Source of the DNA: Desulfurococcaceae archaeon
GTDB lineage: Archaea; Thermoproteota; Thermoprotei_A; Sulfolobales; Desulfurococcaceae
Length of the DNA stretch: 64,000 nt
Assembly (NCBI GenBank): GCA_038889555.1
Contig: JAWAHD010000001.1
Span: 1,016-65,015, forward strand
Direction of reading: 5' to 3'
This document shows, piece by piece, positions 29,160 to 62,093 of this stretch. Made by a program: the position numbers and the translations under genes. The notes below the pieces were generated by a model that saw nothing but the letters and a program-made list of their open reading frames with translations, was not told the DNA's origin and ran no database searches. Position 1 is the stretch's first letter; the number at the start of each line of letters is the position of its first letter.

Positions 29160-29160
29160 C

Positions 29161-40159: not shown

Positions 40160-40552
40160 ATGAAGGGGGTTTCGGGAATAGTTGCAACGGGTATCTTACT
40201 AGCGTTAACAATAGCTGGCGGCGTACTCCTCTACTCGTACATTACCAGGTACTTAACAGTGTTCACTAACTCAGCGGATATTGTAATTACGAACGCGTAC
40301 TACGTTAAATCGCTGAACAAACTCTGCGTTACAGTAAGGAACGTAGGTTTAACTCCAACAACTGTGACAGGAGTTGAAGTCATATTAGCAAACAGAAGCA
40401 TTTCAGCTAGTAATCAAACATATGATATCCCAGCAGGTGGAGAAAGAACCATAGAAATAAACGTCGATCTCACAGAGGCCCCTCTCTACGTTATTGTGCG
40501 GTACGATAGAGACAAGCGAACGGATCCATACACGGTAAGGGTATTTGGCTGA
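40160..40552 (+). CDS. archaeal type IV pilin-like protein (class III signal peptide)
   Basis: MKG|VSGIVATGILLALTIAGGVLLYSYI. A short charged leader ends in KG and is followed by a hydrophobic helix (PibD-type site). First gene of the pilus-assembly cluster. Confidence 0.65.
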   Translation: MKGVSGIVATGILLALTIAGGVLLYSYITRYLTVFTNSADIVITNAYYVKSLNKLCVTVRNVGLTPTTVTGVEVILANRSISASNQTYDIPAGGERTIEINVDLTEAPLYVIVRYDRDKRTDPYTVRVFG

Positions 40553-40570
40553 TAAACACAGGTGTAATCA

Positions 40571-42073
40571 ATGAAGATCTCCAAAAGGTTTTCTTTTAGG
40601 TCTCCTTTTTCTTCTTTTAAATTTAGCTTATCCATTCCTTATGCAAGGAAGAACATTGATCCCACAACCTCGAACATTTTGAATATGTTGCTCGAGAACC
40701 AGCTCAAAGGTTACATTATTGAGAACGTAAGCCTGGACAGCATCCTATATACCTACAGTTTGCATAACGTTGTTGAAATCTCTGTTGGAGAACACGGTAA
40801 TGAAGTTTTTTACGTTGTTAAGGAGCCGATGTACGACAAGGAGGTTTTAGCTCAGGTTACACGAGAACTCTCCAGTAGAGTTTTCTCCGACGAACAGGTT
40901 ATTTCTAGCATAAAAACTATGCTCGAGAAGAAAGAGCTCAAACCCACCGACTACGTGTACTTCAAAGTAACAAGCGGTCTTGGTCCTCTCACACCTCTTG
41001 TTTTAGACCCTCATGTCGAGGATATTCATTTGAGTAAGTCTTCTGGCAGAATTTATGTTGTTCACAATTCTTTTTCTTGGATTGGCTGGTTGAAGACTAA
41101 CATAGTAGTTAAACCAGAGCTAGTAGATCAGCTGGTTCTCGCTCTATCTAGAAGAGCTGGAAAACACATATCACTTGTTCAACCACTCGTCGAGGGATCA
41201 CTAGAGGGTGTTTTGAGAGCTAGTTTGGTTTACAGTGGAAGCATAGCTCAGCTTGGTAGTAGCATAGTACTAAGGAAGAAAAGTGGAGCGACTCACACCA
41301 TTACAAAACTGATAAACGAGGGAACAATTTCGTCTGCGGTTGCAGCATACCTTTGGCTTGTGATAGAGAACAAGGGTTGGATCGTAATCGCAGGCCATGT
41401 TGGCTCTGGGAAAACCACCTTGCTTCAAGCATTACTGAGCCTTATACCAAGGAACAAGAAGATCATCACAATAGAAGACTCCCCTGAAGTCTACGTTCAA
41501 AGCGAACTATGGGACTCTTTCGTTGAAAACCACGAGGTTTTTTCGAGATTACCTCAAGTGGATGCTTTCGCGCTTCTCAAATTCGCTCTTCGTAGAAGAG
41601 CAGACTATATAGTTATTGGTGAAGTTAGAGGAGTTGAAGCGAGGTTATTGGTTCAAGCTTCGAGATTAGGACACGGTGTGCTGAATACCATACATGCTGA
41701 TGGTGCACAGTCTGTTCTTGAAAGACTCATGGCATCTCCAATATCAATTCCAAAGAACCTTCTGGGTAACATATGGACGATTGTGCTGACAGAACTTGTT
41801 GGTAAAACAAGAAAAGTGGTAAGTATTACAGAAGTAAACAGCGACGTAGAACTGGTAGAAATATGCAGTTCCTTTGTACCATGTAGCTTAGAGAATATTG
41901 CTCAGAGGTCTGTCAGGCTCGCTAAGATCTACAATAGTGAAGAACTGTACCAGGAACTTGCTCGTAGAGCGATCTTCCTAGAAAAACTAGTCTCCGAGGG
42001 TGTTTTCGCGCCAGAAGCACTGGCACGTAGGCTCTTCGAGTTTTACGCGGGAAGACACGTGGAGGTTGAATAG
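40571..42073 (+). CDS. type II/IV secretion-family assembly ATPase (PilB/FlaI/VirB11 superfamily)
   Basis: Walker A GHVGSGKTT, Walker B/Asp box ADYIVIGEVRGVEA, His box NTIHAD. Confidence 0.85.
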   Translation: MKISKRFSFRSPFSSFKFSLSIPYARKNIDPTTSNILNMLLENQLKGYIIENVSLDSILYTYSLHNVVEISVGEHGNEVFYVVKEPMYDKEVLAQVTRELSSRVFSDEQVISSIKTMLEKKELKPTDYVYFKVTSGLGPLTPLVLDPHVEDIHLSKSSGRIYVVHNSFSWIGWLKTNIVVKPELVDQLVLALSRRAGKHISLVQPLVEGSLEGVLRASLVYSGSIAQLGSSIVLRKKSGATHTITKLINEGTISSAVAAYLWLVIENKGWIVIAGHVGSGKTTLLQALLSLIPRNKKIITIEDSPEVYVQSELWDSFVENHEVFSRLPQVDAFALLKFALRRRADYIVIGEVRGVEARLLVQASRLGHGVLNTIHADGAQSVLERLMASPISIPKNLLGNIWTIVLTELVGKTRKVVSITEVNSDVELVEICSSFVPCSLENIAQRSVRLAKIYNSEELYQELARRAIFLEKLVSEGVFAPEALARRLFEFYAGRHVEVE

Positions 42074-43349
42074 CTTGTTGCTAAGAGTACTCGGTAAGAG
42101 GAGATTTCTACATAAATGCTACGATGACATGTTCCTCGACTTTCTAGTGCAACTAGCAAGCTTCGAGTCTAGTGGTTTAAAGATCTATCACTTATTCGAG
42201 AGCATTAGAAGAGGTGATATCGAGCTCGGTGAGTGCTATAGCGCTCTCTCGAACCAGTATACTGTACTAGAGAGTTCTCTAGGTGCACCTCACCTGGCTT
42301 TGAGAAAGATTGCTGAATCTGTACCTTCTTCAGAGCTCTCTAAATTTCTGAGAGATTACAGTACCGTGTTAGTTACTAGTGGTAATACGAAGTACTTCGT
42401 TGAATCTGTGCTTAAGCAGGAGTTTGCTAGGTTTAGGACAAAGGTTAATGAGCATCAGAGAGCACTAGATACGTTCTACGAAGCGTATCTAGTTGGGGTT
42501 CTAGTGCTGATGTTCCTCATGGTGCTACCCATATGGGGTTTGCTCCCGCTTCTTGGACTACTCGTAATCTATGCGCTGGGCATGACTGGGTATTTCTTCG
42601 CGTATAGACTATGCGTAAAGCTCCATTACACAATCCCTGGCTACGTAGTGTTCAGCGATATTCTCTTTTCAACGTTAGGAGTTGCTCTAGCCATGTCTTT
42701 CGAGGCGATGTTCCTACTACCTGCAATATTACTTGTTCTACACGCGACTACGAGAAAACACGTTGCTGTGAACAATATTCTCGAGCAGGAATCGTTCCGC
42801 GTAATCTACGATACTTACTCGCAGGTGTTAATGGGTAGACCAGTGAGTACAGCATTGCTGGAGTCCCTAGGTTCCTCTAGCTCGGCTCGGTACAGGTTAC
42901 TCTGGTTTAGTTTAATGCTGGGCGTTAACCCAAAGAAAGTTTTAAAGATGATTAAGCTTCCAAAACTAGCCTTCAAGGTACTTCTCTTCTCGCTTGCAAC
43001 TATGCTTTACAGCTCAGCTGAAGGTAAACACCTTGTCCACGCTGTTGATTACTTGGACGAAATTGCATCGGTGAGAAAACAGGTACGCGAGAAGACAAAG
43101 CAGTACGTTCTGTACTCCTTTGTAGTAATATTTCTTGTAGTAGTAGCCTACATTATGCTATTGAGAATACCACTAGCATCACCCTTAGACAAGCACGCGT
43201 TTTCAGCTTACAGTAGTATAGGTTTTCTAATGGTGATGCTGCCAGTGGTTCTAATCAGAGACGGAGGATTCGCTTCCTCGCGAAGCGCGATATTAGTAGT
43301 ATTCGCAGCGCTTACTTCGTATTTGGCGATGATGAACTTAGCTATTTAA
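42066..43349 (+). CDS. type IV pilus platform membrane protein (TadC/FlaJ/GspF-like)
   Basis: Polytopic membrane protein directly after the ATPase. The ORF-track start at 42000 overlaps the ATPase by 74 nt, so the in-frame TTG near 42066 is preferred (uncertain). Confidence 0.65.
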   Translation: MNSLLLRVLGKRRFLHKCYDDMFLDFLVQLASFESSGLKIYHLFESIRRGDIELGECYSALSNQYTVLESSLGAPHLALRKIAESVPSSELSKFLRDYSTVLVTSGNTKYFVESVLKQEFARFRTKVNEHQRALDTFYEAYLVGVLVLMFLMVLPIWGLLPLLGLLVIYALGMTGYFFAYRLCVKLHYTIPGYVVFSDILFSTLGVALAMSFEAMFLLPAILLVLHATTRKHVAVNNILEQESFRVIYDTYSQVLMGRPVSTALLESLGSSSSARYRLLWFSLMLGVNPKKVLKMIKLPKLAFKVLLFSLATMLYSSAEGKHLVHAVDYLDEIASVRKQVREKTKQYVLYSFVVIFLVVVAYIMLLRIPLASPLDKHAFSAYSSIGFLMVMLPVVLIRDGGFASSRSAILVVFAALTSYLAMMNLAI

Positions 43350-44325
43350 GCTCCTCAACTAGAATCTTTGCAATTGTTCTTGCAGCATTAGGGTAAATCC
43401 TAGTGGGTTTATGAGCGAGCTCCAAGGCTCTCTTTAGCTCCTCTACGCCCGGTCTCTCGATGAAAACTGCTTCTAGCTTCTCAGCGTAGATCTTTACATC
43501 ATTTTTCGGTGCACCGAGAACAACCCTGGGGTTCCACACCACTACGACCGGTTTCCCGTAAGCCAAGCTGGCGGTTGCAGCGGTAACTCCTTGCTGGGTA
43601 ATAACGATGCTTGCACCCGCGATCCACCTGTGTATATCACTAGTGTACCTGAAAACTTTCCACGAAGGGTTTCTCCTGAGGTAGGGCTCTGGATCCACAT
43701 CTCCTGTTTGTATGACAACGTTGTTTAGCTTTAGTTTCTCAATGGAGTCGAACAACTCCTTATACCCAATTGTTCCAGTCGTTACAAGCACATAGCCTTC
43801 GTCCCTGGGTTCGTAAACGGGAGGCTCGTAAACTGGACCAACTACAATCCCCCTTGGAAACATTCCCAGTTGTTCTTCCCAGTGCAGAAACACCTTTGCT
43901 CCAAAAAACTCGAGGAACTTAATGGCTCTCGAAGGCTTAGAAAAGTGCTCTATAGCTTCAATAGTGTACACTTTTGCTCTCCTGAGAACCGTGGCTACCA
44001 AGGATGGTGGAACAGAGAAATTAGAACCTCCAGCAAACACAACTTTAGTGTTCTCTTTCAATAGTAGTCGAAATGACTGATAAAACGCTTTCATCCACCT
44101 TCCTAGATCCTTTAACACTGGTTCACCAGGTCTTCGGGGTAGAACATGATAATATACTCTACCAAGGTCTTTGAACTTCTCAGCTAGGAAAGAATACTCC
44201 TCAGCTACAAGAAAAACATTGTTTTTGAATCCAACCTTGGAGAGCTCTAGCGCTACAGCGTAAACATAGCCGGAGTGACCACCATAACCGGCAACGAGTA
44301 AAATGTTGAGCGATTTAAGGCTCAT
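43342..44325 (-). CDS. MurG/Alg13-Alg14-like GT28 glycosyltransferase (Agl24-like candidate)
   Basis: N-terminal ILLVAGYGGHSGY (GGH motif, as in MurG GGTGGH). Two Rossmann-like halves, 327 aa. Confidence 0.55.
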   Translation of the reverse strand: MSLKSLNILLVAGYGGHSGYVYAVALELSKVGFKNNVFLVAEEYSFLAEKFKDLGRVYYHVLPRRPGEPVLKDLGRWMKAFYQSFRLLLKENTKVVFAGGSNFSVPPSLVATVLRRAKVYTIEAIEHFSKPSRAIKFLEFFGAKVFLHWEEQLGMFPRGIVVGPVYEPPVYEPRDEGYVLVTTGTIGYKELFDSIEKLKLNNVVIQTGDVDPEPYLRRNPSWKVFRYTSDIHRWIAGASIVITQQGVTAATASLAYGKPVVVVWNPRVVLGAPKNDVKIYAEKLEAVFIERPGVEELKRALELAHKPTRIYPNAARTIAKILVEELK

Positions 44326-44572
44326 GGCACTCCCGTTAGTAAGCTTTCAAGACTATTAGTAAAGCGTGAGTGCAATAATAATTTTTGGAATTCATCTACA
44401 TTTTAGCCACGTTCAGCGATCGAATCCGCAAGATCGGATGTCTCTACATACCCGGGCAGGGAGTTGATTTCGTGAACACATTTGAAGTTATATAAACTGT
44501 ACTTCTTATACAAGATCAAAGTCTTGTGGCATTGAATCATTAGTAGAACACGGAGTAATAGGTACGGGACCT

Positions 44573-47224
44573 ATGATTAAAGGAAGGCGCCACCTGGAAT
44601 TGCTAAATTACATTTTTTTTGCTATGATTTGTGCAGTAATCGCGTTAAACCCGCTGGAAGCTTTATCTTTAAATACCATTCCGCCCGATGGCGACTCTAG
44701 AGCGCATATATACAGAACCCACGCATTTTGGGAAGACTTTATTAAGAACAAAGGATTAAGTCTTAGACAGTACAATGGAATGATCATGCTTACCTATGCT
44801 CCACTATTCTACGTGATTCTATTTTTACCATCACTATTATCTGGACCCGTACTCGCATATAAAATAGGAAGAGTTCTCACCGTAGTATTGTATCTTCTGG
44901 CTACCGCTATGTTATCACGTAAACTAGGTTTTGCCAAAGAAACAACCCTTATTGCCATGGCGATTCTCGCATCCTTTCCTACAGTAATGAGTTTGTACTA
45001 TAGCGGTGCATTCCCATACCTACTCTCATGGAGCTTAACTCTGATGTCCTTCTCAATACTTCTGGAGTATGAGAGAACACGTCGAAAGGAGCTACTTTTA
45101 GCTTCAGGATTTATTGGTGGATTATCTGTTCTTTCTCATAGCTATGGTACAATAAATATTTCATTACTTTTGCTAGCTTGGTTCTTTACCGGTTTCCGTA
45201 AGAATCTTATGAAGGTTGTTACGGCTATTCTTACGTATCTTGGAATAGCTTTTCTGGTATCATTACCATATGTAGTTTCAATGTTATTAACACTCAATGA
45301 TGCATCTCCACTTTACGAGTATTCTCCTGGTAGATTTTCTCTATTACTGGAGACAGAATATTTAAGCATTGATGTAGTTAGCCTAATAATGGCATCGTTG
45401 TGCTTATATGTGGCTATACGCTTATTCAGAATAAACGATAATCATTCAGGGAAACAAGTTATTTCACACTTTTTATTGCTCTCTACCATTTTTCCTCTCG
45501 TGTTTCTTGCTTTGGCATCATTTAACATTCAAAACATGGCTGCAATAAACAGAATAGCGAAACTTGTATTACCGTGGAGGTTTTTATACGTTAACTGTCC
45601 AACTTTCCTTATACTCAGTTTAGAGCCGAGCATGAGAAAGGTGATTGTATTAAAGAATAGGTTTCTCGGTTACTTGACTTTGGGAATAATCTTATTAGTG
45701 TCGTTGCTAGCCAATTTAATAATCACATCAACAATATTTCCCTATGAAAAAACAATAAACGAAGCCTTCCCGGGCCTTACTGAGGTGATAAAAAACAACC
45801 GTGTTCTTGTAGTAGGTGTTCCTTTAATTCTTACCAATAGCCCGGTGGTTTTTTCTTCAATGTATGATTACGAAACATCTACAGGTTCTTACAATCAGGG
45901 TGATCCGACCTTCTTTGACCTAACAGTCTATTACGAGTGGGTAACGAACCTAGTGAAGAGTCCAGTAGTTCTTGAAAATATCTTGGAGTTAACAAGGTCT
46001 AATTACATATTCACAGACCTAGATATAGGTGTAAACTTTACTCCGATCAGCGAAGAGCTGATCTCGAGGAAGTGTTCATTGAAGATCACCGTACTTACCG
46101 AGTTTAATTACCATAGATTACAATGTAGCCTAAATGAACACTTGGTTTTAGAAAAATTCAATGGAGTTCTAATAAAGTTAATGAGCGCTGAAGATAACAT
46201 CATGAGAGTCGTCGTTGTTCAAGAGGATAATCAAGAGCTGGAAATGGTCACATTGTATAGCGCTATTGATGAAAATAGAAATACCTTACGCATTTTTCAA
46301 CTTCCTCGTTCTAAGTTGAATGAACGTGTAACCGTGAAGGACATAATCATTGATATATGGGTTGACAAATTATTACCAAATTCTTCACTAAATATAGAAA
46401 TGTACCTAGTCTCTATCAACTTAGTCAAAGTAGCTGATTATCACTACAGAGGATACAACTTTACTCTCTATGAGTATTGCAGAAAACCTCCGATGGCGAT
46501 TTCATCAAAGGTCGTGGTATTTGACACAGATCCCGAACTACCAAGGGTGTTAACACTCTTTGCTCTGGATGGTCATAAATTTGTGTTCTTATCTGTAGAG
46601 CAAGAGGTTCCAAAAGACCTTATAGCAGGTGTTATAACGATTAGAATGGATAAAGCTGACGAATACGTTAAAAACGGGTATAGAACAATTCTTCTAATGT
46701 CTGGTGATACTTTTAATGTGAGAAATCAAACAGAACTCTTTGCTATTGTTGAAACCCCCTTGTTTAGTTCACGGTTACTACCGTACGACCCAGGTAATCC
46801 TTATACGTATGCGAAATGGGATAAGAATTTAACTATGGATAGCCTTCAGCGTATTGTTTACGAATCTTCGAAACTTTTAAGCTACATTAAGGAGTTTATG
46901 GAGATAAAAGTAGAAGAAATTGACGCCTCTATAAAATCATCTCCACCGGAATTCCATATCGAGGTACGAAAGGATAGAGTGTACTTAGTTAAGTTAGCAT
47001 ACGCGTCTCATTGGAGTTCTAACGCGAAGCTCTTAAGATCACCAACAGGATTCATAGTAGTTGTTCCAGAAGAGGAAGGTGAGGTTAAGGTAACATGGAA
47101 CCCACCAATGATACGAGAGCTAACCATATTCAGTATATCATCATCTACGATAGTTTTAATCTACATTATTTTACACTATAGAAAGAAGAACAATAGTATA
47201 AAGCTTGTAAAACTTCAATCTTAA
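44573..47224 (+). CDS. 883-aa polytopic membrane protein, GT-C-like topology (possible glycosyltransferase)
   Basis: About 12 N-terminal TM helices with a first-loop DGD motif (PPDGDSRAHIY), an about 450-aa soluble domain with many N-x-S/T sequons, and a C-terminal TM anchor. No WWDYG motif, so not called AglB. Confidence 0.45.
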   Translation: MIKGRRHLELLNYIFFAMICAVIALNPLEALSLNTIPPDGDSRAHIYRTHAFWEDFIKNKGLSLRQYNGMIMLTYAPLFYVILFLPSLLSGPVLAYKIGRVLTVVLYLLATAMLSRKLGFAKETTLIAMAILASFPTVMSLYYSGAFPYLLSWSLTLMSFSILLEYERTRRKELLLASGFIGGLSVLSHSYGTINISLLLLAWFFTGFRKNLMKVVTAILTYLGIAFLVSLPYVVSMLLTLNDASPLYEYSPGRFSLLLETEYLSIDVVSLIMASLCLYVAIRLFRINDNHSGKQVISHFLLLSTIFPLVFLALASFNIQNMAAINRIAKLVLPWRFLYVNCPTFLILSLEPSMRKVIVLKNRFLGYLTLGIILLVSLLANLIITSTIFPYEKTINEAFPGLTEVIKNNRVLVVGVPLILTNSPVVFSSMYDYETSTGSYNQGDPTFFDLTVYYEWVTNLVKSPVVLENILELTRSNYIFTDLDIGVNFTPISEELISRKCSLKITVLTEFNYHRLQCSLNEHLVLEKFNGVLIKLMSAEDNIMRVVVVQEDNQELEMVTLYSAIDENRNTLRIFQLPRSKLNERVTVKDIIIDIWVDKLLPNSSLNIEMYLVSINLVKVADYHYRGYNFTLYEYCRKPPMAISSKVVVFDTDPELPRVLTLFALDGHKFVFLSVEQEVPKDLIAGVITIRMDKADEYVKNGYRTILLMSGDTFNVRNQTELFAIVETPLFSSRLLPYDPGNPYTYAKWDKNLTMDSLQRIVYESSKLLSYIKEFMEIKVEEIDASIKSSPPEFHIEVRKDRVYLVKLAYASHWSSNAKLLRSPTGFIVVVPEEEGEVKVTWNPPMIRELTIFSISSSTIVLIYIILHYRKKNNSIKLVKLQS

Positions 47225-47576
47225 ATCGCATAATACGATGAACCTTACAAGGCCTAAATCAACTTCTTCACTAATTTCGAATTTTTAGGAAAACATGCGT
47301 ATTCAATGTCTACTTAATAAGCGCCTTCAAATGAAAGATGAAACTTGCATTTTCTATCAGTGAACCCGTGCGCTGGAGAACTAGTGTATATCGGATAAGT
47401 TTCCCAGCATGTTCATGTCAGGTAGCGACGTTTAAATACTAGTCTTTACAGTTGATAAATCCTTTCAAAGTATTTTTACAGGTAGAAAGCACAAGCCGTA
47501 TTAACGAGGAGGCTCTTCCAAGGAATCAAAGCAACAAGTGTATTAACGGACCTTAGTTACTAGTAAGTAAGACAAG

Positions 47577-47625
47577 CGGGCCCGCCGGGATTTGAACCCG
47601 GGTTCTCCGGCTCTGCATGCTGGGG
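47577..47625 (-). other. orphan tRNA 3' half (anticodon-stem 3' strand, variable loop, T-arm, acceptor 3' strand)
   Basis: The - strand reads ...CCAGC-AUGCAGA-GCCGG-AGAAC-CCGGG-UUCAAAU-CCCGG-CGGGCCC-G. The matching 5' acceptor GGGCCCG and a D-arm are absent from the about 100 nt upstream. Confidence 0.6.
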
Positions 47626-47939
47626 CTCGTTTGGATTAGTTCCTGTGTTCACGCGGGGATGGAAACTGGTTACATTTTTGATTGTTTATGTGAGTGTGTT
47701 TTAACGCTTCGAACATTTTAATTAGGAAGGGCTCGCTCATCGACGTGGGTGAGAGGAGAATAGTGCGTGTTGGCTCGAAGAAAGAAAGGTACTTGATATA
47801 CCTCCCTATAGGGCGCATCTACATCTGGAGAAGCTGCTGGACGATTGGAATAAAGCAGAGGAGCTCATCAAATACATTGATGAGATCTTCGCCGAATTCA
47901 GCGTGCCAAAGAGTTCCTGATCATGACAGATCCCAAGAA

Positions 47940-48959
47940 ATCCAAAACATAGAGAAATTGGTTGCAAAGCCCGGTACTAGATACATACCCACGTTTCAGA
48001 TGGTTCTAGGGACAGATGTAATGGTTCAAATAGTAAGCAATATAACAAGATATCTCGAGGAGAGAAATGCCAAGATCTCCACTTTAATTAGCGTAGAGGA
48101 CATAAGGCGAGATCATGGAGGTTTTAAGTTGATTGCAATTAGGGGCGAATTTTATGTTAAAAAGCTATTAATAGCTTCGGGACGTGGTGGGGGTAAAATG
48201 GTTTGAGGAGGTAACGATGACGATAGGCATAGAGATCGAGTCAGGGCCCCTGGACATCGGTGCCGGAGTTGAAATATTATAGTTATGTAGCAGAGCATAT
48301 TACAAGCATAAATCACACCCCAAGACCGTCATGTACACCAAGGTATATGACGATATGGTTAGAACTTTTTGCACTAATCCACAAGGCTAGTACTCAAGGA
48401 ATACTGTGATGATGGTACGATCGGGGTTAACGGCGAGACATATTGAGTATTCAAATCAAAGAACACTAACTTCGCATTACTAATCACTCTAAGGTCGACT
48501 GATCCATACTCGGATGTTCTCGAATCGGCTAAATCGATTGCTAGAGTAGCGACAAGAGTGGGCATAGGGAAACCCATTATACAGAGATTAGGGAATTTAG
48601 AAAAAGACAGGAGAAGTACATGGGAAAGGACCTCTAGGAATGTTATAACCCCAACTCTGAAAAATGTAACACCTGGGGATATAAGCATATTTCTACCACA
48701 CCGAGTTATACAGAATTTTCTTGAAGTCATAGAAAGACTTGATGGAATATATCCAGGTGTAGCATCTCCACAAACACTTCTATATGTCCCTGAGATAAAA
48801 TAATATTATGGTGTGAAGGCAAAGACAGACTACTGCAAACTGGAAACAAACATTGAAGGCACATTCGTGACCGGGGATGGTGTAGGGCTTTCAAGAGGGA
48901 TAAACGTGGTAGCTACTACTGGCATCTTGGCGGCTAGGGCCATATCAGGTGTTCTTTAG
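47940..48959 (+). pseudogene. disrupted FAD-dependent dehydrogenase gene (COG2509-like), 5'-truncated
   Basis: Homologous reading passes through KPGTRYIPTFQMVLGTDVMVQIVSNITRYLEERNAKI...GEFYVKKLLIASGRGG, then frame shifts (about 48207 and about 48388), then VRTFCTNPQG. In-frame stops lie at 48204, 48444 and 48801. The C-terminus [34 protein letters not shown] is intact. No GxGxxG N-terminus. Confidence 0.6.
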
Positions 48960-49194
48960 CATGTATATGCCGAGTGATGTGTTGATAAGTTTATAAATAA
49001 AACACTGCATAAAAAGACTTATGGACTTCGTCAATTTTGTCAAACTATTTTCGCTGGATGAGTTATTTAGAGACTCATGTTATGCTTTTCTCTGTATTGA
49101 AAGTAAGTGGATTGAAGAATAGTTGGGTTTATAAAACCTCTTTTTATACAGAGTTTTATCTAGCAAGAATTTTTCAATATAAATTATACAAAAA

Positions 49195-49210
49195 TTAATC
49201 AATTGATTAA
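49195..49210. promoter_or_regulatory. perfect 16-bp palindrome TTAATCAATTGATTAA upstream of the pur operon
   Basis: Exact inverted repeat about 123 bp upstream of the purC start, inside a 370-bp AT-rich gap. TATA-like CTATATATAC lies at 49286-49295. Confidence 0.3.
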
Positions 49211-49332
49211 AGGATCCTGAATCCCAATATTGTGGGTTCACAGAGTTATTTATTTGATAATGTAACGAAAGTTTTTAATCTATACCTATATATACATCTA
49301 CACATCCTGAAGTAGGAAAGGTGTATTGAATC

Positions 49333-50067
49333 TTGCTTACCTTAATATATAGAGGGAAAAGCAAAACCCTTTATCAACATCCTACAATACCGAATGCGTT
49401 GATTATGAAATTCGAAGATGATGTTACAGCGGCTGATGGAGCTATCAGGATGATTGCGAAAGGTAAAGGATTATTGAATGCCAGGATCAGTGCTTATTTC
49501 TTCAAGTTACTAGAGAATAATGGAGTAAGAACACATATGATAAGCTACGATAACTCTGATACTATGGTGGTTAAGAAACTTAAAATGATCCCGCTTGAAG
49601 TGGTCATTAGGAATTACGCATATGGTTCGCAATTGAAAAGAATGCCTTTGTTTAAAGCATTACAGCCGCTTAAACCGCCCATAATAGAATATCACTACAA
49701 GAGCGATGAATTACATGATCCCCTTGTCCTACGCGAGGATGTAATATATGCAGGTGTTGTGACTGAAAGACAACTGAGATTAATAGAAGACCTTTCCCTT
49801 AAAATAAACAGCATAATGACAAATGACATGGAGAAAAAGGGCATTAAGCTCATTGACCTCAAATTAGAGTTCGGCTTTGACGAGAACGGCGAGATCGTGG
49901 TCGGAGACGAGATTACAGGGGATACTTTCAGGGCTCTGGATGAGAAAGGGGAGCACTTGGATAAAGAGATCTTTAGGAAAACCAAGAACGTACAACTATT
50001 GATCAAGAGATATATAGAGTTAGGCAAGCGATTAGGGGTATCCATCGAGGGGGTTGAAGACTACTGA
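49333..50067 (+). CDS. purC: SAICAR synthetase
   Basis: LIYRGKSKTLYQ N-terminus, and the LIDLKLEFG / GDEITGDTFR motifs typical of PurC. TTG start with GGTG upstream. Confidence 0.9.
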   Translation: MLTLIYRGKSKTLYQHPTIPNALIMKFEDDVTAADGAIRMIAKGKGLLNARISAYFFKLLENNGVRTHMISYDNSDTMVVKKLKMIPLEVVIRNYAYGSQLKRMPLFKALQPLKPPIIEYHYKSDELHDPLVLREDVIYAGVVTERQLRLIEDLSLKINSIMTNDMEKKGIKLIDLKLEFGFDENGEIVVGDEITGDTFRALDEKGEHLDKEIFRKTKNVQLLIKRYIELGKRLGVSIEGVEDY

Positions 50068-50077
50068 GGTATTACAT

Positions 50078-51340
50078 ATGCCTATAGGCATGGTAGCCAT
50101 AATGCCTTTTGAAGAGGGCTGGGATCTCAGGCCATATTTACACTATGCTTTCTTAGGACTACAGCATAGGGGAGGCGATAACAAGGTCTACTGTACACTC
50201 GTGGATAATAGGCCATTATGCATGGAATATGAGGGAGAGGGGATCTCACAGGGTATTTCAAAGCCCGTTGTGGCATTTACATCATCAGATGAGCCATCAA
50301 AGCATTGGCTGGAGATCGAGAGAAACGGAATTAGACTTGTAGCAATATATGATAGGTTCACAGATGACCTGGAGTTATTATTAAATAAGTTATTGGAGAG
50401 ATCAACTAATATAGTCAACGAAGCTGGACGTGTAGTAAGAGATTTGACGAATAGCATGGATCTAGATATACCGTCGTTCATTGCTTTAACGAGTAGAGGA
50501 GAGATATTGTCGATGAGGAGTAATCTCGGTATTTCGCCACTGGTTATAGGAGGGTATGGATTCGACCTTGCAATAGTTTCATCGGAGTCTTCGCTAGTAG
50601 ACATATTGGATAGTGATATAAGGAGACACGTTAAGCCGGGTGAAATGCTCTACATTGCTAAGTCGTTGTTCAAGGTGTTTGAATCGAACATGGATAATGG
50701 CTCGCTATGTGTTTTTGAACCACTATACCTGGCTAGGCACGACTCCATTATAGATTACAATATACATGTATACGAGTTTAGGAAAGAGTTAGGCCGAGAA
50801 CTGGCTAGGGGCTTTAACAACGAGATCGATATTGTTGTTGGGGTCCCAGAGACAGCATATCCATATGCAATTGGATTAGCGCGCGAACTCCGTAAGCCGT
50901 TTGAACTGGGCTTTCATCCAACACCTGGTAGATATAGGTCTATGCTTAAGAGAACTGGGACAGAGAGATTAATAGCTATACACTTGAAAATGAACCCTAT
51001 TAGAAAGGTATTAGAGGGTAAGAGAATAGCGCTTGTTGATGACAGCATGGTCACGGGCACCACTATTAAGACCATTTCTCAAATACTACGCAATAAGGTA
51101 GGGGTCGAGGAAATACACCTTTTAATAGCCAGTCCTCGGTTGACAAGAAGTTGTCCGTATGGTTACATGTATATAGATGAGAAATTGTTAATAGCTTCAA
51201 ATCTTAGCGAGGACGCGATAGTCAAGTACCTGGAGGTGGATAGCTTGACATGGCTAAGCGAGGATAGCTTAGACCACGTAGCTAGGGCTTGTAATATACG
51301 CCTATGTGGGAGGTGTTTTGGGAGACGATTCTTCGGGTGA
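50078..51340 (+). CDS. amidophosphoribosyltransferase paralogue lacking the N-terminal Cys nucleophile
   Basis: Begins MPIGMVAI... where PurF has MCGIVG. Retains LGLQHRGGD and the PRT motif RIALVDDSMVTGTTIKT, plus C-terminal Cys residues. Confidence 0.7.
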   Translation: MPIGMVAIMPFEEGWDLRPYLHYAFLGLQHRGGDNKVYCTLVDNRPLCMEYEGEGISQGISKPVVAFTSSDEPSKHWLEIERNGIRLVAIYDRFTDDLELLLNKLLERSTNIVNEAGRVVRDLTNSMDLDIPSFIALTSRGEILSMRSNLGISPLVIGGYGFDLAIVSSESSLVDILDSDIRRHVKPGEMLYIAKSLFKVFESNMDNGSLCVFEPLYLARHDSIIDYNIHVYEFRKELGRELARGFNNEIDIVVGVPETAYPYAIGLARELRKPFELGFHPTPGRYRSMLKRTGTERLIAIHLKMNPIRKVLEGKRIALVDDSMVTGTTIKTISQILRNKVGVEEIHLLIASPRLTRSCPYGYMYIDEKLLIASNLSEDAIVKYLEVDSLTWLSEDSLDHVARACNIRLCGRCFGRRFFG

Positions 51341-51345
51341 TATGC

Positions 51346-52851
51346 ATGAAAGTGTTGATAATCGGCTCGGGAGCTCGGGAACACGTCTTAGCCAAGTTCG
51401 TTTTGAAAAGCACCATCGGTGCTAAGCTGTATTCAATCGCTGATTATGTTAATCCAGGGTTAAAACGCGAATCGGAGAGAACAGGGGGTAGGTTATATGT
51501 GGCTAATACGCTTAGTCCAGATCAAATTGTCAAAATAGCAGAGAAGATATCGCCTGACCTTGTGGTGATAGGGCCGGAGGAACCACAGTTCGCGGGTGTC
51601 ACAGACGCCCTAAGAGAGAGCGGTTTCACAGTTTTTGGGGCTTCCAAGAAACTCTCAATTATAGAGCAGAGCAAGGTGTTTGCAAGGAGTTTTATGTGGA
51701 AACATAAAATACCAGGTAGATTGTTTTTCCAGGCATTTAGGGACTTTAGTGAGGCAGAGGAGTTCATGAAATATGCTGGCGATGTAGTGGTTAAGCCAGC
51801 TAGACAAGTTGGAGGAAAAGGTGTCAGGGTATTGAGGGATACGAGAGCATATCTATCATCCGAGAAATCAAAGATCAAGCAAGCAGCCGCCCTTGATGTA
51901 TTAAACGAGATGAAACATTACGATGACATTGAATACAAGATACTTGTGGAGCAAAGGGTTGAAGGGGTTGAATATACCGTCCACGTGATCACAGATGGCT
52001 ATAATTTCGTTTCATTACCCGTTATACAGGATCATCCGCATGCTTTCGAGTGGGATATAGGCCCAGAGACGGGTGGAATGGGGTGTATAGCCGGCCCAGG
52101 CAAAACACCACCTTTCCTGACTATCGAGGAGTACGATAGGAGCGTTGAGATAGTCTCGGATATAATTAGGAAATTATCCGAGGAAATGAGAGAACGATAC
52201 ACAGGCGTTCTAGCTGGTCAAATGATGTTGACGTGGTTCTGGGGGCCAACAATAATAGAATTCTACAGTAGGTTTGGAGACCCAGAGATCACTGCAATAC
52301 TTCCCTTGGTCGAGAGCGATTTCTTGGAATTACTGGATCGCGCCGCTAATAGAAGATTAGCTGGCTACAAGCTCGTAATAAACGAGGAAAAAGTATCAAT
52401 AGTGAAGGTCGTGGCGCCTCTAGGCTATCCTTCTCATAGAAAGGAGGCAACAGGTCACCCACTTCAAGTGGATGAGGCCCGTATAATGGATCTAGGGTGC
52501 GATGTAGTATATGGCAGTGTAGAACTAGGGGATAACGGCATCGTAACAAAGGGTTCGCGTTCAGTGGAGATCGTGTGTGTCGACGACGGTTATCCAAGTG
52601 CATATGAAAAAGCAGAGAAAGCCGTTTCGTACGTTAGATCGCTAGATGAATGGCCTCTTTTCCATAGGAGTGATATAGGCTCACATGAGTTATTGCGTGA
52701 AAGGATCAGCTTAGCTGAGAGAGTTAGAAGGATATATAAGTATAGGGCCTCAAAGGGCCTTTTAGGCGAGTACTATGTGTGGATCCCATCCAAAGGGCTG
52801 TTTTCAAATCCCCTTATAGTTCTCTTGGGTGGGTTAAATGAATCCACGTGA
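51346..52851 (+). CDS. purD: phosphoribosylamine-glycine ligase (GAR synthetase)
   Basis: [16 protein letters not shown] canonical start (ATG 51346, 6 nt after the upstream stop). ATP-grasp core. The C-terminus is about 60 aa longer than usual. Confidence 0.9.
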
Positions 52852-54067
52852 CAAGATCCCTTTAACTACTCTCTCCAAGCCATTAAAAGTATTGCTATTG
52901 GGTAGCGGCGAACTCGGTAAAGAGGTCGCTATAGAGGCCATTAGATTAGGATTTGAAGTAATAGCAGTGGATAGGTATGACATGGCACCAGCAATGCATG
53001 TATCTAGCCGTAGATATGTCGTAGACATGTTGAACGAGAATGCTGTGAAAACCCTTGTCAGACGCGAAAATCCCGATGTGATAATACCGGAGATAGAAGC
53101 CATAGCCGCCGACGCGTTAATAGACCTCGAGAAAGAGGGCTATCACATAGTGCCAAACGCCATGGCTGTCAAAATAGCTATGAATAGGATCGAATTGAGG
53201 AAATTTGCCGCCGAGAAACTAGGCTTACCCACCACTAGGTATTACTTCGCCGAGAACCATGAAGAGGCAATTGAAGGATGCGAGAAAGTTGGATACCCAT
53301 GTATAATAAAGCCGGAGATGAGTAGTAGTGGACATGGCCATGTCAAGGTCATGGAATTTAATAGAGAGAAAATAATCAGTGCATATAATTATGCGATATC
53401 ACATGCAAGAGGTAAGAGCAAAAGAGTTATTATCGAAGAATTCGTACCCCTTGAAACAGAGTTCACAGTGTTGACATATAGGTATCTTGGCCCAGATGGA
53501 AAAGTGATCACAGAAACTTGCGAGCCCGTAGAGCACTGGAGATATGGGAAATATCATTACATAGAGTCATGGCAACCATCAGATAAGCCGACCAATGTAT
53601 TAGAGAAGGCAAGAGAAATAGGCATTAAGGTGGCGAACGGCTTAGGGGGCCTTGGCATATTTGGGGTCGAAGTGTTCTTGACAACAGACGGGAGAGTGTT
53701 GTTCAGCGAAGTCGCGCCCAGGCCACATGACACCGGCATGGTGACTATGGTTACACAGGAATTGAGCGAGTTCGCTATACATGTGAGGGCTGCAGTGGGG
53801 TTACCTGTGCCAAGGCCCAAGATCATATCACCTGGTGCAAGCATAGCCTACTATGTCGATGAAGACAATGCATGGGATTGTAGCCTGAGCGGTGTTTCAA
53901 AGGCGCTGTCGATTCCCGGCGTGGACATAAGGGTATTTGGAAAACCATATACTTATAGAGATCGACGAATGGCAGTGATCCTGGCAAGGGGTAATAATGT
54001 AAAGGAAGCCCTTGAAAAAGCCCGCCTAGCTCATAGCTACCTAGGCACACTTTGTCCTGGTGATTGA
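52838..54067 (+). CDS. purT: formate-dependent GAR transformylase
   Basis: [39 protein letters not shown] closely parallels the E. coli PurT N-terminus (recalled). Confidence 0.9.
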
Positions 54068-54341
54068 TATGGGGATTTACAAGGTAGGCGTGGTGGTTAA
54101 GTACAAGAAAGGTCTCAGAGATCCGGAGAGCGAGGTAATATACAAAGACCTCGTACTCAAGAAAGGATATAACATGATTAAAAAAGTGGAAACAGGTAAG
54201 TTCTTCCTACTAGATGTTGAGGCCGATAGTTTTGAAGAAGCGGAGAGAATTGTGAAAGAGATGTGCGAGAAACTAAGGATCTATAACCCAATTGTGCACA
54301 GCCTCGAGGTATTCGAGTATGGCAAGGGTGGCGGTGATTAG
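54060..54341 (+). CDS. purS: FGAM synthase subunit PurS
   Basis: About 90 aa, with [24 protein letters not shown], immediately upstream of purQ/purL. The start is GTG 54060 or ATG 54069. Confidence 0.85.
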
Positions 54342-55008
54342 TTTCCCTGGGACAAATTGTGACGAAGACGTGGTAGTGGCATTTAAGGAGACAACTAGCC
54401 TGGAAGCGGAGATTGTGTGGTACACGGAGTTTAAACCAGGAATATACGACGCCGTGGTGATACCTGGTGGTTTTAGTTATGGTGATTGGCTAAGAGCTGG
54501 CGCGATTGCTGCTAGAACTATGACAATGGAATATGTAAAAGAAGACATCGAAAAAGGTACACCAGTGTTGGGTATTTGTAATGGATTTCAAATACTGGTG
54601 GAGGCAGGTTTACTGCCTGGGGCATTAATATACAACGAACACGGCAGATTTACCTGTAAATGGGTTAAAACGCGCATATCTAATCCCAAGGGGCCTTGGC
54701 TCAAGTTATTGAGAGATAATGATGAGATAAACATGCCAGTTGCGCACGCTGAGGGCCGTTACTATATTCCACGCGAGGAATACGATAAAATTAAGACAAC
54801 ATCGCCAGTTCTATACTACCTACCTGGTTACAATCCCAATGGAAGCCTATATGACATTGCTGGTGTGGGCAATGAAAACGGCCTGGTGTTCGGTCTAATG
54901 CCACATCCTGAAAGATCGGCGAATAAGAACTTATCTCCACGGGGTTTTATTGGAAATGGTTATTTGATTTTCAAAAGCCTTGAAGACTCTCTCAAAAGGG
55001 GCTGGTAA
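54319..55008 (+). CDS. purQ: FGAM synthase glutaminase subunit PurQ
   Basis: [18 protein letters not shown], catalytic Cys in GICNGFQIL, and MPHPER. The ATG at 54319 overlaps the purS 3' end. Confidence 0.9.
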   Translation: MARVAVISFPGTNCDEDVVVAFKETTSLEAEIVWYTEFKPGIYDAVVIPGGFSYGDWLRAGAIAARTMTMEYVKEDIEKGTPVLGICNGFQILVEAGLLPGALIYNEHGRFTCKWVKTRISNPKGPWLKLLRDNDEINMPVAHAEGRYYIPREEYDKIKTTSPVLYYLPGYNPNGSLYDIAGVGNENGLVFGLMPHPERSANKNLSPRGFIGNGYLIFKSLEDSLKRGW

Positions 55009-57209
55009 TGCCTCTATCCCGCGAGGAAATAGATGAGATCAGGGCTATACTTGGAAGGGAGCCAACCCAGGAAGAACTAGCAATGTTCGAGGCCCAATGG
55101 AGTGAGCATTGTTCATATAAGAGCAGTCGATCATTGTTGAGATTATTCAGCTCAGAGGGTAAACACGTTGTAATAGGGCCTGGCAGAGATGCATCTGCAA
55201 TTGAAGTGTTTCCTGGAATTTCAGTGGTCCTCAAAATAGAGAGCCATAATCACCCATCAGCGGTAGACCCTTATAATGGGGCTGCCACAGGTATAGGCGG
55301 TGTTGTCAGGGATGTATTAACACTCGGGGCTAAGCCAATAGCACTATTAGATTTGCTATATATGGGGGATCCGAGGGATCCCCATGCAAATTGGCTAATC
55401 AAGGGCATTGTCAAGGGCATAAGTGATTATGGAAATAGAATTGGTGTTCCCACAGTCGCCGGCGATACATGGTTCGATAGTTCATTCAATAGACAGCCGT
55501 TGGTCAACGTTGGATGTGTTGGTATAGTTGAGTCAGACGCGATAATCATCGGAGACGCCAAGCCAGGTGATTTGATCGTAATAATCGGCAACCCGACAGG
55601 CAGGGATGGACTACTTGGTAGTAGTTTCGCGTCCAAGGCCCTGAGCGATGATGTAGATCAAGAGATTGGCGCTGTACAGGTAGGAGACCCGTTGACCGAG
55701 AAGTTATTGATAAACGCTGTGTTAGAGTTGGCTAGGAAAAGACTAGTCAAATACATCAAGGACCTTGGAGGCGGTGGATTAACCACGGCAATCAGCGAGA
55801 CATTGGCGGAGTTTAACCTTGGTGGTGAAATAGAATTGAGTAATTTACATCTTAGGATGAATCTAACGCCATTGGAAATACTGGTCTCTGAGAGCCAGGA
55901 GAGAATGTTGTTAATACTTGGAAGAGATAAATTAGAAGAAGTGATCAAGGTACTTGAGAAGTATGGTTTACAATACTCTTTGATAGGCGTTACTGATTCT
56001 ACAAATCGCCTAAAGGTCTATTACAAAGGTGTTAAAGTGGCAGATGTGCCCGTTAAAGAACTCGCCAAGCCACGGAGTATTAGAAGGGATTCGGAGCCCC
56101 CATTAGACGCCCTCAAAGGGCTTAAACCAATATATAAGTTACGAGAGGTAGATCTGAAGGAGGCTGTGTTAAAAGTCTTCTCCTCGTTTAACATAGTATC
56201 GAGAAAATGGATTTTTGAACAATATGATCATGAGGTGGGTGTTAGAACAATCATTAAACCGGGCTATGGAGACGCAGCTGTGTTGAGAATAAATCCAGGC
56301 GATCTAAGCGATAAAAGAGGTATAGCGATCAAGGGAGATGGAAACCCGAGATACACCAGTATAGATCCATTTAATGGGGCAGCGAATGTCGTAGCAGAGT
56401 GTTTTAGAAACCTCGTGGCTGTGGGGTCAACGCCTCTCGCAATTGTAGATGAATTAAATGCCGGTAACCCAGAGAAACCGTGGCATTACTGGTATTTCGA
56501 GATGATGTTAAAGGGCGTTGCATGGATGGCTAGCGAGCTAGGTTTGCCAGTGATAGGGGGAAAAGTCAGCTTTTACAATGAGGATCATAGGGGGGTCCAA
56601 GTAAGGCCCACGACAACCATAATTGGAATTGGACGAGTGGATGACGTCTCCAGGGCTAAGACCTTTGATTTCAAGCAACCAGGTTCATTGATACTGATAG
56701 CGGGAATCACGTACCCGGAACTTGGCGGATCTGAATACCTGTATACAGTGCACGGTATCGAGGGAGGTGAAATACCCAGGCCTAGACCTGTCTCGGAACT
56801 GAAAACAAGTGGTTTCATCCATGAGCTCGTAGAAAGAGATCTAGCTTACTCTGTGCACGATATTGGACTTGGCGGAATAGCAACAGCCCTTATTGAGATG
56901 AGCGTTCTCGGTAGAATAGGGTTTAAAGTCGACACGGCATTAATACCTCATAAAGCATGTGACAGGTTGGATGAGCTATTATTCTCTGAGACACAGGCAC
57001 GCTATATAATCGAGATCCCAGCTAATAGTGTTGGATTAGTTAAACAAATAGCTGAAAAACACGGGGTTATAATAGGGGTTATCGGCGAGACGATAGATAA
57101 GCCAGTTGTCGTCTTCACCAAGAAAGACGTGGAATTGATAACGATAGACCTCTGGGAATTGGTAAACATCTATGAGAAACGCCTCTCGGAAACCCTTGAA
57201 AGCGTGTAG
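55008..57209 (+). CDS. purL: FGAM synthase II (PurL)
   Basis: FEAQWSEHCSYKSS motif, duplicated AIR-synthase-like domains, 733 aa. The ATG overlaps the purQ TAA. Confidence 0.95.
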   Translation: MPLSREEIDEIRAILGREPTQEELAMFEAQWSEHCSYKSSRSLLRLFSSEGKHVVIGPGRDASAIEVFPGISVVLKIESHNHPSAVDPYNGAATGIGGVVRDVLTLGAKPIALLDLLYMGDPRDPHANWLIKGIVKGISDYGNRIGVPTVAGDTWFDSSFNRQPLVNVGCVGIVESDAIIIGDAKPGDLIVIIGNPTGRDGLLGSSFASKALSDDVDQEIGAVQVGDPLTEKLLINAVLELARKRLVKYIKDLGGGGLTTAISETLAEFNLGGEIELSNLHLRMNLTPLEILVSESQERMLLILGRDKLEEVIKVLEKYGLQYSLIGVTDSTNRLKVYYKGVKVADVPVKELAKPRSIRRDSEPPLDALKGLKPIYKLREVDLKEAVLKVFSSFNIVSRKWIFEQYDHEVGVRTIIKPGYGDAAVLRINPGDLSDKRGIAIKGDGNPRYTSIDPFNGAANVVAECFRNLVAVGSTPLAIVDELNAGNPEKPWHYWYFEMMLKGVAWMASELGLPVIGGKVSFYNEDHRGVQVRPTTTIIGIGRVDDVSRAKTFDFKQPGSLILIAGITYPELGGSEYLYTVHGIEGGEIPRPRPVSELKTSGFIHELVERDLAYSVHDIGLGGIATALIEMSVLGRIGFKVDTALIPHKACDRLDELLFSETQARYIIEIPANSVGLVKQIAEKHGVIIGVIGETIDKPVVVFTKKDVELITIDLWELVNIYEKRLSETLESV

Positions 57210-57212
57210 AGC

Positions 57213-58610: not shown

Positions 58611-58614
58611 TAAT

Positions 58615-59628
58615 ATGAGATATCGTGATGCAGGGGTTGACCTCGATATACATAGGCAAATGCACATGATAGCGAGAAAGATCGTGGAGAAAACGAGTTC
58701 GCATATAGGTGTGGAAATAGGCAATATAGGGGGATATGTTCAGTTCATCCGAGGCGAAATAGGGGATATAGGGATACATGTAGATGGTGTTGGGACAAAG
58801 ACTTTGGTCTTATTGAAGACCGGTAAACTAAGAATAGCTGGATGGGACTGTGTAGTCATGAATGCAAATGATATTGCCTGTGACGGGTTCAGAGCGCTTG
58901 CTTTCTCTGATTACATAGCTATGGAAAAACCAGATATAAACATGTATGCAGAGGTCATGAAGGGTATCGAGGACGCGTCGATCCACGTTAAGGCCCCGAT
59001 AATATCTGGCGAGACGGCCATAATGCCTGGTGTAGTGAAGGGCCTAGATGTTGTATGCATAGTCCTGGCAATTAGAAGAAAGCCGTTTCAAAATAAGGCA
59101 CAGGGCTATGATGTGGTGATAGGGGTGAATAGCTACGGTTTACATGCAAATGGCTATAGCCTGGCCAGGAAGATCGTGGAAGAAGTGATAGGTGATTACA
59201 ACAAGGAAATCGATGGAATAAATATCGGGGACGAATTAAGTAAGCCAACGGCAATATACTATAACCTAGCGTTAGAGGCAGTGGAAAACGGCATCGTGAA
59301 CTCCATTGCCCATATAACCGGTGGCGGGTGGAGTAAGTTGAAAAGAGTATTAGGTGAATCACTTGACATGGAGCTGAGACCACCCCCACCTACGCCCATA
59401 TTCAGGTTATTAATGGAAAAAGGGGATATTCCGCTCGACGAGGCTTACAGGGTTTTCAACATGGGCATAGGTCTCGTCCTAACCACGCATAAATCCCGTG
59501 TGGATGAACTCGTGTCCATGATTCATAGACATGGTTTTCACCCATATATACTTGGCCATGTTAAACCCGGTCAGGGAATCGTAAGGTTACATATAGATTG
59601 GGCAGGTAATAGAGTTGTCGAGCTCTAA
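58615..59628 (+). CDS. purM: AIR synthetase
   Basis: [11 protein letters not shown] start (ATG 58615, just after the purF stop) and DGVGTK motif. Confidence 0.9.
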
Positions 59629-60730: not shown

Positions 60731-60739
60731 GGTGTCGAT

Positions 60740-62086: not shown

Positions 62087-62093
62087 CGATGTC

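Follow-up and report, generated by a model that had tools for sequence, protein, structure and literature searches.

An orphan tRNA-Arg 3′ part as a probable attR-type scar in a composite genomic island carrying a purine-synthesis operon in a Desulfurococcaceae archaeon

Does a lone 3′ part of a tRNA on the − strand of a Desulfurococcaceae contig mark the place where an integrative element recombined with a tRNA gene, or is it one half of a split tRNA? The fragment lies at 47577–47626 of a stretch of 64,000 nt (the window), which corresponds to G000:C1:1016–65015 on a contig, C1, of 81 kb; in contig coordinates the fragment occupies C1:48592–48641. The assembly, G000, is a metagenome bin of 1.35 Mb in 125 contigs and is 89.5% complete. 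Both explanations had been put forward in an initial annotation of the window. The analysis presented here favours the first, with a probability of about 0.88: the orphan marks an attR-type junction, left by an integrative genetic element, and does not belong to a split tRNA.

On the − strand the orphan reads, from 47625 to 47577, GCAUGCAGA-GCCGG-AGAAC-CCGGG-UUCAAAU-CCCGG-CGGGCCC-G and, from 47626 to 47577, GCCCCAGC-AUGCAGA-GCCGG-AGAAC-CCGGG-UUCAAAU-CCCGG-CGGGCCC-G. These letters contain everything that had been ascribed to it, namely a perfect T-arm, a 7 nt 3′ acceptor strand with discriminator G, a 5 nt variable loop and GCCGG as the 3′ strand of an anticodon stem. The tRNA likeness extends slightly more 5′ than had been described, to about 47626–47630, and the extension includes an anticodon-loop-like segment, CAUGCAGA, together with an anticodon-stem 5′ strand that is defective. 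The orphan as delimited here thus runs from the anticodon-loop-like segment through the variable loop, T-arm and 3′ acceptor strand to the discriminator. The 25 nt of T-arm plus acceptor have a single exact copy in the window, and none of 100 shuffles gave two or more matches to this 25-mer with up to three mismatches (mean 0.00 matches); the second real match in the window at this tolerance is a tRNA-Leu gene at 29135–29159. That gene, a tRNA-Leu(CAA) at 29072–29160 on the + strand, contains an intron of 13 nt; it escaped ARAGORN at default settings and the Rfam scan of the window at the gathering threshold, but was recovered by ARAGORN with the intron search and by an RF00005 scan of the genome (46.7 bits). 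The tRNA likeness of the orphan is far above chance.

A complete tRNA is not present at this position. ARAGORN, run without and with the intron search, reports no tRNA at the orphan, nor does Rfam at the gathering threshold, and a permissive cmscan matches the T-arm part of the tRNA model only (positions 43–63, 14.3 bits against a gathering score of 29). On the 81 kb of C1, annotated tRNAs aside, GGGCCCG is confined to the acceptor palindrome of the orphan itself, and hence there is no upstream 5′ acceptor strand, whether separated by an intron or not. As first described, the fragment has no 5′ acceptor strand and no D-arm, and an intron restoring a full tRNA, for which the initial annotation had allowed, was not found by the ARAGORN intron search. 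A match of the orphan to the mascRNA-menRNA family of Rfam (19.6 bits, E=0.3) was set aside as weak, being merely the T-arm plus acceptor. A functional RNA is not expected from the orphan.

The orphan belongs to the arginine family of tRNAs. Eight exact copies of the 25-mer are present in the whole genome, in five tRNA-Arg genes, two tRNA-Lys genes and the orphan. Over the last 50 nt the orphan is identical at 45 positions to tRNA-Arg(GCG), with the last 25 exact, at 44 to tRNA-Arg(TCG) and to tRNA-Arg(CCG), at 43 to tRNA-Arg(CCT), at 38 to tRNA-Arg(TCT) and at 37 to both tRNA-Lys genes. In the part common to tRNA-Arg GCG, TCG and CCG it retains 36 of 37 positions.

A trans-spliced split tRNA, of which the fragment would be the 3′ half gene with its own promoter and a 5′ half elsewhere, has several points in its favour: split tRNAs are known in the Desulfurococcales (PMC3218864), the T-arm and acceptor strand of the fragment are perfect, a TTAAAA box, rich in A/T, precedes the fragment by about 75 nt on its own strand, and with a genome that is 89.5% complete the other half could be missing from the assembly. 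According to PMC3218864, a split tRNA is recognized by a 5′ half that matches, a promoter for each half, a leader rich in G+C, a bulge-helix-bulge junction and the lack of the isoacceptor. The evidence from G000 is against such a tRNA: a whole-genome scan with RF00005 returned 44 matches but no 5′ half in the 89.5% of the genome that is represented; 42 of them are full-length tRNAs, one is cut by a contig end and one is an exon of an intron-containing tRNA-Trp. Of the 26 GGGCCCG sites that the genome has outside annotated tRNAs, the orphan itself accounts for two, and a D-arm follows at none, so that a search for the complementary 5′-half gene came back empty. The tRNA-Arg genes GCG, TCG, CCG, TCT and CCT and tRNA-Cys(GCA) are all intact, and thus no isoacceptor is missing; an arginine body with anticodon GCA would, moreover, misread Cys codons. 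The anticodon-loop-like segment with its mismatched anticodon-stem 5′ strand has the look of a decayed copy, not of an exon cut at a splice junction. The fragment is also absent from two genomes that are 95% identical, G008 and G011, and the region upstream of it is homologous to an integrase-proximal region in another genome, G009. A split tRNA is accordingly very improbable, given the lack of a 5′ half, the complete isoacceptors, the mismatched stem and the close relatives without the fragment.

If the orphan is instead an attachment-site remnant, the initial annotation predicted that the intact tRNA would lie on the same strand at higher coordinates, within which a second copy of the fragment would be found. 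Such a gene exists beyond the window: the intact tRNA-Arg(GCG) is located at C1:70769–70843, 22.2 kb away, and like the orphan it is on the − strand. A search of the genome for a second copy within a complete − strand tRNA leads to this gene, with the 45 of 50 identities and exact last 25 nt given above. It adjoins an endonuclease V gene, and the orphan is located 22.2 kb downstream in the reading direction of the tRNA.

Comparison with related genomes defines the extent of the intervening DNA. The closest core-genome relatives of G000 within the genus are G008 and G011. In G008 (contig C4), L049:3–18209 corresponds to C1:27104–45313 at 95.7% identity, and the next alignment begins about 110 bp on, where L049:18320–20000 corresponds to C1:70769–72451 at 94.8%; the same two alignments are found for contig C130 of G011. 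Both flanks are therefore 95–96% identical between G000 and the two relatives, and a stretch of 25.4 kb in G000 (C1:45314–70768; from 44299 onward in the window) is absent from both. The first host gene held in common with G008 and G011 is a glycosyltransferase gene (Pfam) at 43342–44325 on the − strand; in those genomes some 75 bp separate its start from the tRNA-Arg(GCG) 3′ end, with no fragment in between. The homology between G000 and its relatives breaks exactly at the discriminator, the last base of the tRNA. Since the flanks are adjacent in G008 and G011, G000 carries an insertion of 25.4 kb with one boundary exactly at the tRNA 3′ end, the signature of site-specific recombination at a tRNA gene. 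Taken by itself, the comparison would fit an insertion in G000 as well as an excision in the lineage of G008 and G011. The further prediction that a zone of decayed genes and the pur operon would fall inside inserted DNA is borne out, as the relatives are without the 25.4 kb in which they lie. Read directly from the sequences, then, are a duplicate of the 3′ part of tRNA-Arg downstream of the intact tRNA-Arg(GCG) on the same strand and the lack of the interval in the closest relatives. Within the 25.4 kb segment, the orphan and the distal edge are 3.3 kb apart.

The 5′ side of the orphan connects it to an integrase. A region at 47627–47822, here called the int-arm (the arm of the element on the integrase side) and holding the start of a small + strand ORF, has relatives in 2 of 30 other genomes searched, G009 and G012. 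It is 74–77% identical at the nucleotide level to L021:9498–9789 of G009 over about 200 bp. In G009 an orphan half of Arg type (L021:9449–9497) is followed by a homologous region of about 350 bp and then by an intact integrase (L021:9856–11145), an apparently complete protein of 429 aa that belongs to PF16795 (E=4e-24) and to phrog_5127; the core lies 357 bp upstream of the integrase ORF, with ORFs in other frames between them, and the host gene on the other side of the orphan encodes a transporter. The small ORF in the int-arm is 71% identical over 45 aa to a 66 aa ORF upstream of the G009 integrase. The second relative, at L020 in G012, is 86% identical to G000 over 103 nt, comprising the core plus about 55 nt of the arm, and is located 5.6 kb downstream of that genome's own endonuclease V and tRNA-Arg(GCG) pair. 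The anticodon-like loops of the three orphans differ, being GCA in G000, CCT in G012 and CCG in G009. Two of the five differences between the G000 orphan and the tRNA (GCCCCAGC for GCGCCGGC) are common to the orphans of G000 and G012; this part of the core was therefore inherited from the element and did not arise by local decay.

No integrase remains in G000. Using the G009 integrase as query, tblastn found neither an integrase nor a fragment of one near the orphan, near the tRNA or anywhere on C1, and Pfam found no integrase domain in the scanned ORFs of the region. G000 has lost the integrase and holds a degenerate remnant. Among the marks by which an island is recognized, a same-strand partial repeat of the tRNA 3′ part, an empty site that breaks at the tRNA 3′ end and foreign content are all present; an integrase gene inside the element is lacking in G000, and the structure is for this reason a remnant and not an element.

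Several observations count against the attR reading. The repeat is imperfect, with 5 of 50 bases differing, and the tie to an integrase comes from one homologous locus, that of G009. Furthermore, the orientation of the att core relative to the integrase is, in most relatives of this integrase, opposite to that in G009. These relatives are found at 5 loci in genome contigs and 19 in metagenome contigs, with none in viral contigs. At 7 of the 24 loci (Arg-TCG, Arg-CCG twice, Ser-GGA, Ser-GCT, Gly-CCC and one Gly-like fragment) a tRNA or tRNA-like core precedes the integrase gene by 100–130 bp on the same strand, and at another 4 of the 24 a core lies about 100 bp past the integrase stop codon. 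The integrase family is tied to tRNA genes, which speaks for the attR reading. An 18 nt degenerate motif from the int-arm had 49 matches in genome contigs, all but one of them in unrelated bacteria or archaea; the pattern is too short and was uninformative.

Two features of the integrase loci may be recorded here. The spacer of about 110 bp between the tRNA and the integrase start at L130, L131, L132, L134, L140 and L053 contains an inverted repeat, GTTTCA...TGAAAC, which may be a binding site or a regulatory hairpin. At L071 (G009:C30:1–61) and several metagenome loci the contigs end within tRNA-Arg or 40–240 bp upstream of the integrase. Assemblies are broken by the 3′ sequence that the tRNAs share, and under-assembly of such integrated elements is therefore probable in these bins.

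A copy of a tRNA 3′ part could also come about with no integrase, as a tRNA-Arg pseudogene formed, for instance, by homologous or illegitimate recombination between near-identical paralogues, or could have been carried passively on imported DNA, and in either case it would mark no integration. Five tRNA-Arg genes have 35–37 of the last 37 nt in common, no integrase is left in G000, and the imported block described below has illegitimate junctions at both ends; the occurrence of one flanking sequence beside tRNA-Arg GCG, CCG and TCG and a tRNA-Gly in different genomes could additionally reflect shuffling of flanks between tRNA loci. This origin is nevertheless judged unlikely, because the orphan has its 5′ arm in common with the site beside the G009 integrase and with the G012 orphan, including two core bases that are not those of the tRNA, and because the insertion relative to G008 and G011 starts at the last base of the tRNA, as site-specific recombination predicts and random rearrangement does not.

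Between the orphan and the tRNA the island is filled mostly with metabolic genes. In the direction from orphan to tRNA, the int-arm is followed by an FAD-dependent protein pseudogene, the pur operon, fragments of an OMP-decarboxylase gene, purE, purK, an ABC-ATPase fragment, small ORFs and a region of about 400 bp, here called F. The pseudogene (47823–48953, + strand) is 5′-truncated and frameshifted and is the first gene of a block resembling the genome G004; an intact paralogue is present at C20:10547–11959. The de novo purine biosynthesis operon, identified with Pfam at 49333–63161 on the + strand, is the cargo of the island and has the gene order purC, PRTase-domain gene, purD, purT, purS, purQ, purL, purF, purM, purP, purB, purP. 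With purE and purK, which lie beyond the window at G000:C1:65788–67360, it makes up a complete archaeal-type de novo purine gene set. Of two short ORFs at 63409–63805 of the window, one has part of an OMP-decarboxylase domain (profile positions 45–102 of 221), which looks like a broken pyrF-type gene within the island.

The block has a different history from the DNA around it. The 21.5 kb of the interval between tRNA and orphan that includes the pur operon and purEK are 92–95% identical to G004: L022:102–16940 of that genome corresponds to C1:65659–48838 at 93.7%, and C1:65660–70374 is also 92–95% identical, whereas the remaining window is only 65–74% identical. The encoded Pur proteins are 92–98% identical to those of G004, compared with 46–77% to those of G012 and G009. 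An identity to G004 of 92–95% in the block, against 65–74% in the core, points to a recent transfer between species. PurL was detected in 4 of 17 genomes of the genus, and was not found in G008 (92% complete) or G011 (62% complete). In G004 intact genes extend past both ends of the block, including the 5′ part of the FAD gene and purA. In G000 the block is cut at 47822|47823 (junction J1, with the microhomology TCCAGA) and, at its other end, at C1:70374|70375; G000 is thus the recipient. No Arg-type core and no integrase are present within the 56–60 kb examined around each of the pur clusters of G012, G009 and G004, which makes the att-flanked state peculiar to G000. At G000:C1:65659|65660, some 130 bp before purE, two G004-like segments adjoin whose counterparts in G004 are on separate contigs, in both cases at internal positions (C4:80101 and C13:20689); the donor may have been unlike G004, or else one of the genomes has been rearranged here.

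On the other side of the orphan, a distal part of the insertion (44326–47576, 3.3 kb) is likewise absent from G008 and G011. Most of it is taken up by an intact ORF of 883 aa at 44573–47224 on the + strand; the GC content of the distal part and the ORF is low, 0.365–0.369 compared with 0.449 for the genome. The ORF has no Pfam and no PHROG match. Homologues with 41–46% amino acid identity are confined to a different family of the order, where 4 of 15 genomes of the genus g7 have them, and are found in none of 18 genomes of its own family, and the 1.5 kb flanks of these homologues contain no tRNA or T-loop-like sequence. An Atlas lead points from the 883 aa ORF to GT-C / AftD / YfhO-like membrane glycosyltransferases, and the ORF adjoins a GT28-type glycosyltransferase gene. 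The distal 3.3 kb are probably the remnant of an earlier insertion. A second att remnant was not recognizable at the edge beside the glycosyltransferase gene, so that a model of tandem insertions needs a deletion that was not observed.

Region F (C1:70375–70768), next to the tRNA and beyond the window, encodes the last 86 aa, at 74% identity, of a membrane protein of about 500 aa. On contig C1 of G007 this protein is full-length, follows a T2SSE-type ATPase and abuts tRNA-Gly. Pieces resembling F, 89–394 bp in length, abut tRNA-Arg GCG in G000, G016 and G015, tRNA-Arg CCG in G012 and G007, and tRNA-Arg TCG in G015, and one abuts the 3′ side of the G012 orphan. The presence of several copies per genome beside different tRNAs suggests that F is the other arm of the element family. 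The G007 locus, however, does not bear out what is predicted for such an arm, as neither an integrase nor an orphan tRNA-Gly half was found within 46 kb, and the G009 element contains no F-type gene. F could alternatively be a native flank, or a flank shuffled between tRNA-Arg loci. In five genomes (L058, L059, L060, L061, L063 and L020) F is located directly 3′ of tRNA-Arg genes or of one orphan, with varying truncation, and it holds an 8 bp inverted repeat, GTTTCCGG...CCGGAAAC, the last pair of which is mismatched in the G000 copy.

Since the locus is known from a metagenome bin of 125 contigs, the possibility was considered that the contig is a chimera which switches between co-occurring populations at the repeated tRNA-Arg sequence. 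Contigs C91 and C92 duplicate part of C1 as strain variants, the assemblies of relatives break at tRNA-Arg genes, and the read depth over the tRNA-like 150 bp is more than 100-fold above the surroundings because many tRNAs have the same sequence. Of 15 public runs listed, 13 hold the stretch wholly or partly, and these 13 come from 5 studies; none of the 13 is recorded as RNA. In runs of two studies other than that of the best holder, contigs bridge the orphan together with J1: X2 covers 47132–48294 with 1 difference and X3 covers 46781–47899 with 0 differences. The distal edge is bridged by one contig (X3, 43927–44361). Both outer flanks are of the same lineage, at about 95% identity to G008, and neither J1 nor the distal edge coincides with a repeat. 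A chimera is, on these grounds, barely conceivable. As for C91 and C92 themselves, each is 3474 bp long and corresponds to C1:41237–44710 (40222–43695 of the window), which indicates that the bin holds strain variants of a T2SSE/T2SSF-like gene region; they match the G008 counterpart of that region at 98.4% and 96.5%.

The history that would account best for an attR-type junction at this locus can be outlined as follows. A tyrosine-integrase element with a tRNA-Arg-like attP would have recombined with the 3′ part of the tRNA-Arg gene. By this event the tRNA would have been restored in functional form at one end (attL), and a non-functional duplicate of its last 37–50 nt would have come to lie at the other (attR), with the element's own arm still joined to the 5′ side of the duplicate. 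The integrase and the rest of the element would later have been lost at the illegitimate junction 47822|47823, where the arm would now be continued by 21.5 kb from the chromosome of another species of the genus, with the complete purine-synthesis operon. On the strand of the tRNA the most likely order would be tRNA, 22.2 kb unit, orphan, an older remnant of 3.3 kb and host DNA. The simplest model would be two successive insertions at the same tRNA with subsequent loss of the outer att site. The orphan is a scar within a composite 25.4 kb island at the tRNA-Arg(GCG) locus. The att-remnant explanation of the initial annotation thus stands as regards the duplicated tRNA 3′ part and both predictions drawn from it, and gives way as regards the position of the orphan, which is not the outer edge, 3.3 kb of foreign DNA lying past it. 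It is further refined in that the integrase is gone and the cargo is chromosomal DNA of a congener, not the genes typical of such elements.

The 22.2 kb unit has both att-like sites, its attR retaining 36 of 37 positions in the shared core, and no recombinase. It is conceivable, if doubtful, that the unit is a still-mobilizable att-flanked element without an integrase, the orphan being a working attR recombined in trans by integrases of the G009 type. If so, an archaeal element would be ferrying a complete de novo purine pathway between hot-spring Desulfurococcaceae species, most of which lack the pathway.

Taking the orphan as an attR-type scar, the annotation of the locus is settled to the extent that the proper label for the fragment is att remnant or tRNA pseudogene instead of split-tRNA gene, and that for 44326–64000 of the window and the DNA beyond it is genomic island. 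The locus is a clear case of a whole purine-biosynthesis operon that moved recently between species into a lineage whose nearest relatives lack the operon, and its landing site is a tRNA-Arg integration hot spot. Integration sites in these small genomes can trap metabolic DNA besides the genes of viruses and plasmids.

Archaeal integrative elements of types I and II at tRNA genes, and their decay into captured DNA, are described in PMC8371274, which cites She et al. (2001, 2002, 2004) for ‘gene capture’. The G000 locus resembles these elements in that the intact tRNA gene is followed, on its own strand, by a direct repeat of its 3′ part, that foreign DNA lies between the two copies, and that the element has decayed and lost the ability to excise by itself. 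It differs from the pNOB8 type, which has a whole integrase, and from the SSV type, which has Int(N) and Int(C) fragments, in that no integrase gene is left in G000. The family PF16795 is placed among the suicidal integrase families in PMC8371274; the signature of this SSV-type (‘suicidal’) mode was looked for, and no integrase fragments flank the tRNA or the orphan. Also unlike in archaeal integrative elements, the content is mostly a metabolic operon of a congener rather than plasmid or virus genes, and the orphan is located inside a composite island and not at its edge.

Partial tRNA fragments have been reported from the Desulfurococcales, six in Aeropyrum pernix and one in Thermosphaera aggregans, and were ascribed by the authors to viral integration or rearrangement at tRNA loci (PMC3218864). 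The orphan is similar to these in being a lone partial tRNA in the same archaeal order; beyond what is described for them, its context in G000 has been worked out with respect to the partner tRNA, the empty site, the homology of the arm to integrase-proximal DNA and the origin of the cargo. Trans-spliced split tRNAs are described from Desulfurococcales, Thermoproteales and Nanoarchaeum (PMC3218864). With their 3′ halves the orphan shares the state of a stand-alone 3′ portion with T-arm and acceptor strand intact, but it starts inside a decayed anticodon stem and not at a bulge-helix-bulge junction, it has no 5′ half, the isoacceptors are complete and it is not conserved in close relatives.

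Outside the archaea, bacterial cis-mobilizable elements (CIMEs) are att-bounded segments without a recombinase of their own, and integrative elements accrete in tandem at one tRNA locus. The G000 unit is like a CIME in being att-bounded, in lacking a recombinase and, under the tandem model, in being one of several units at one tRNA locus; it is unlike one in that it is archaeal, mobilization in trans is hypothetical and its attR has 5 differences in 50. In Thermococcales, integrase-driven recombination between similar tRNA genes has been described (PMC5495485). Points of similarity to that case are an integrase of the PF16795 family, several tRNA genes with the target sequence and one flank beside different tRNA-Arg genes, and an inversion or exchange of the Thermococcales type would be a possible explanation of the shuffled flanks. 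In kind, then, the G000 locus is known, and it is the classical picture of archaeal tRNA-gene integrative elements decaying into captured DNA; it stands out by its cargo, an entire purine operon that comes from the chromosome of a congener and was joined in between the two att-proximal ends by illegitimate recombination.
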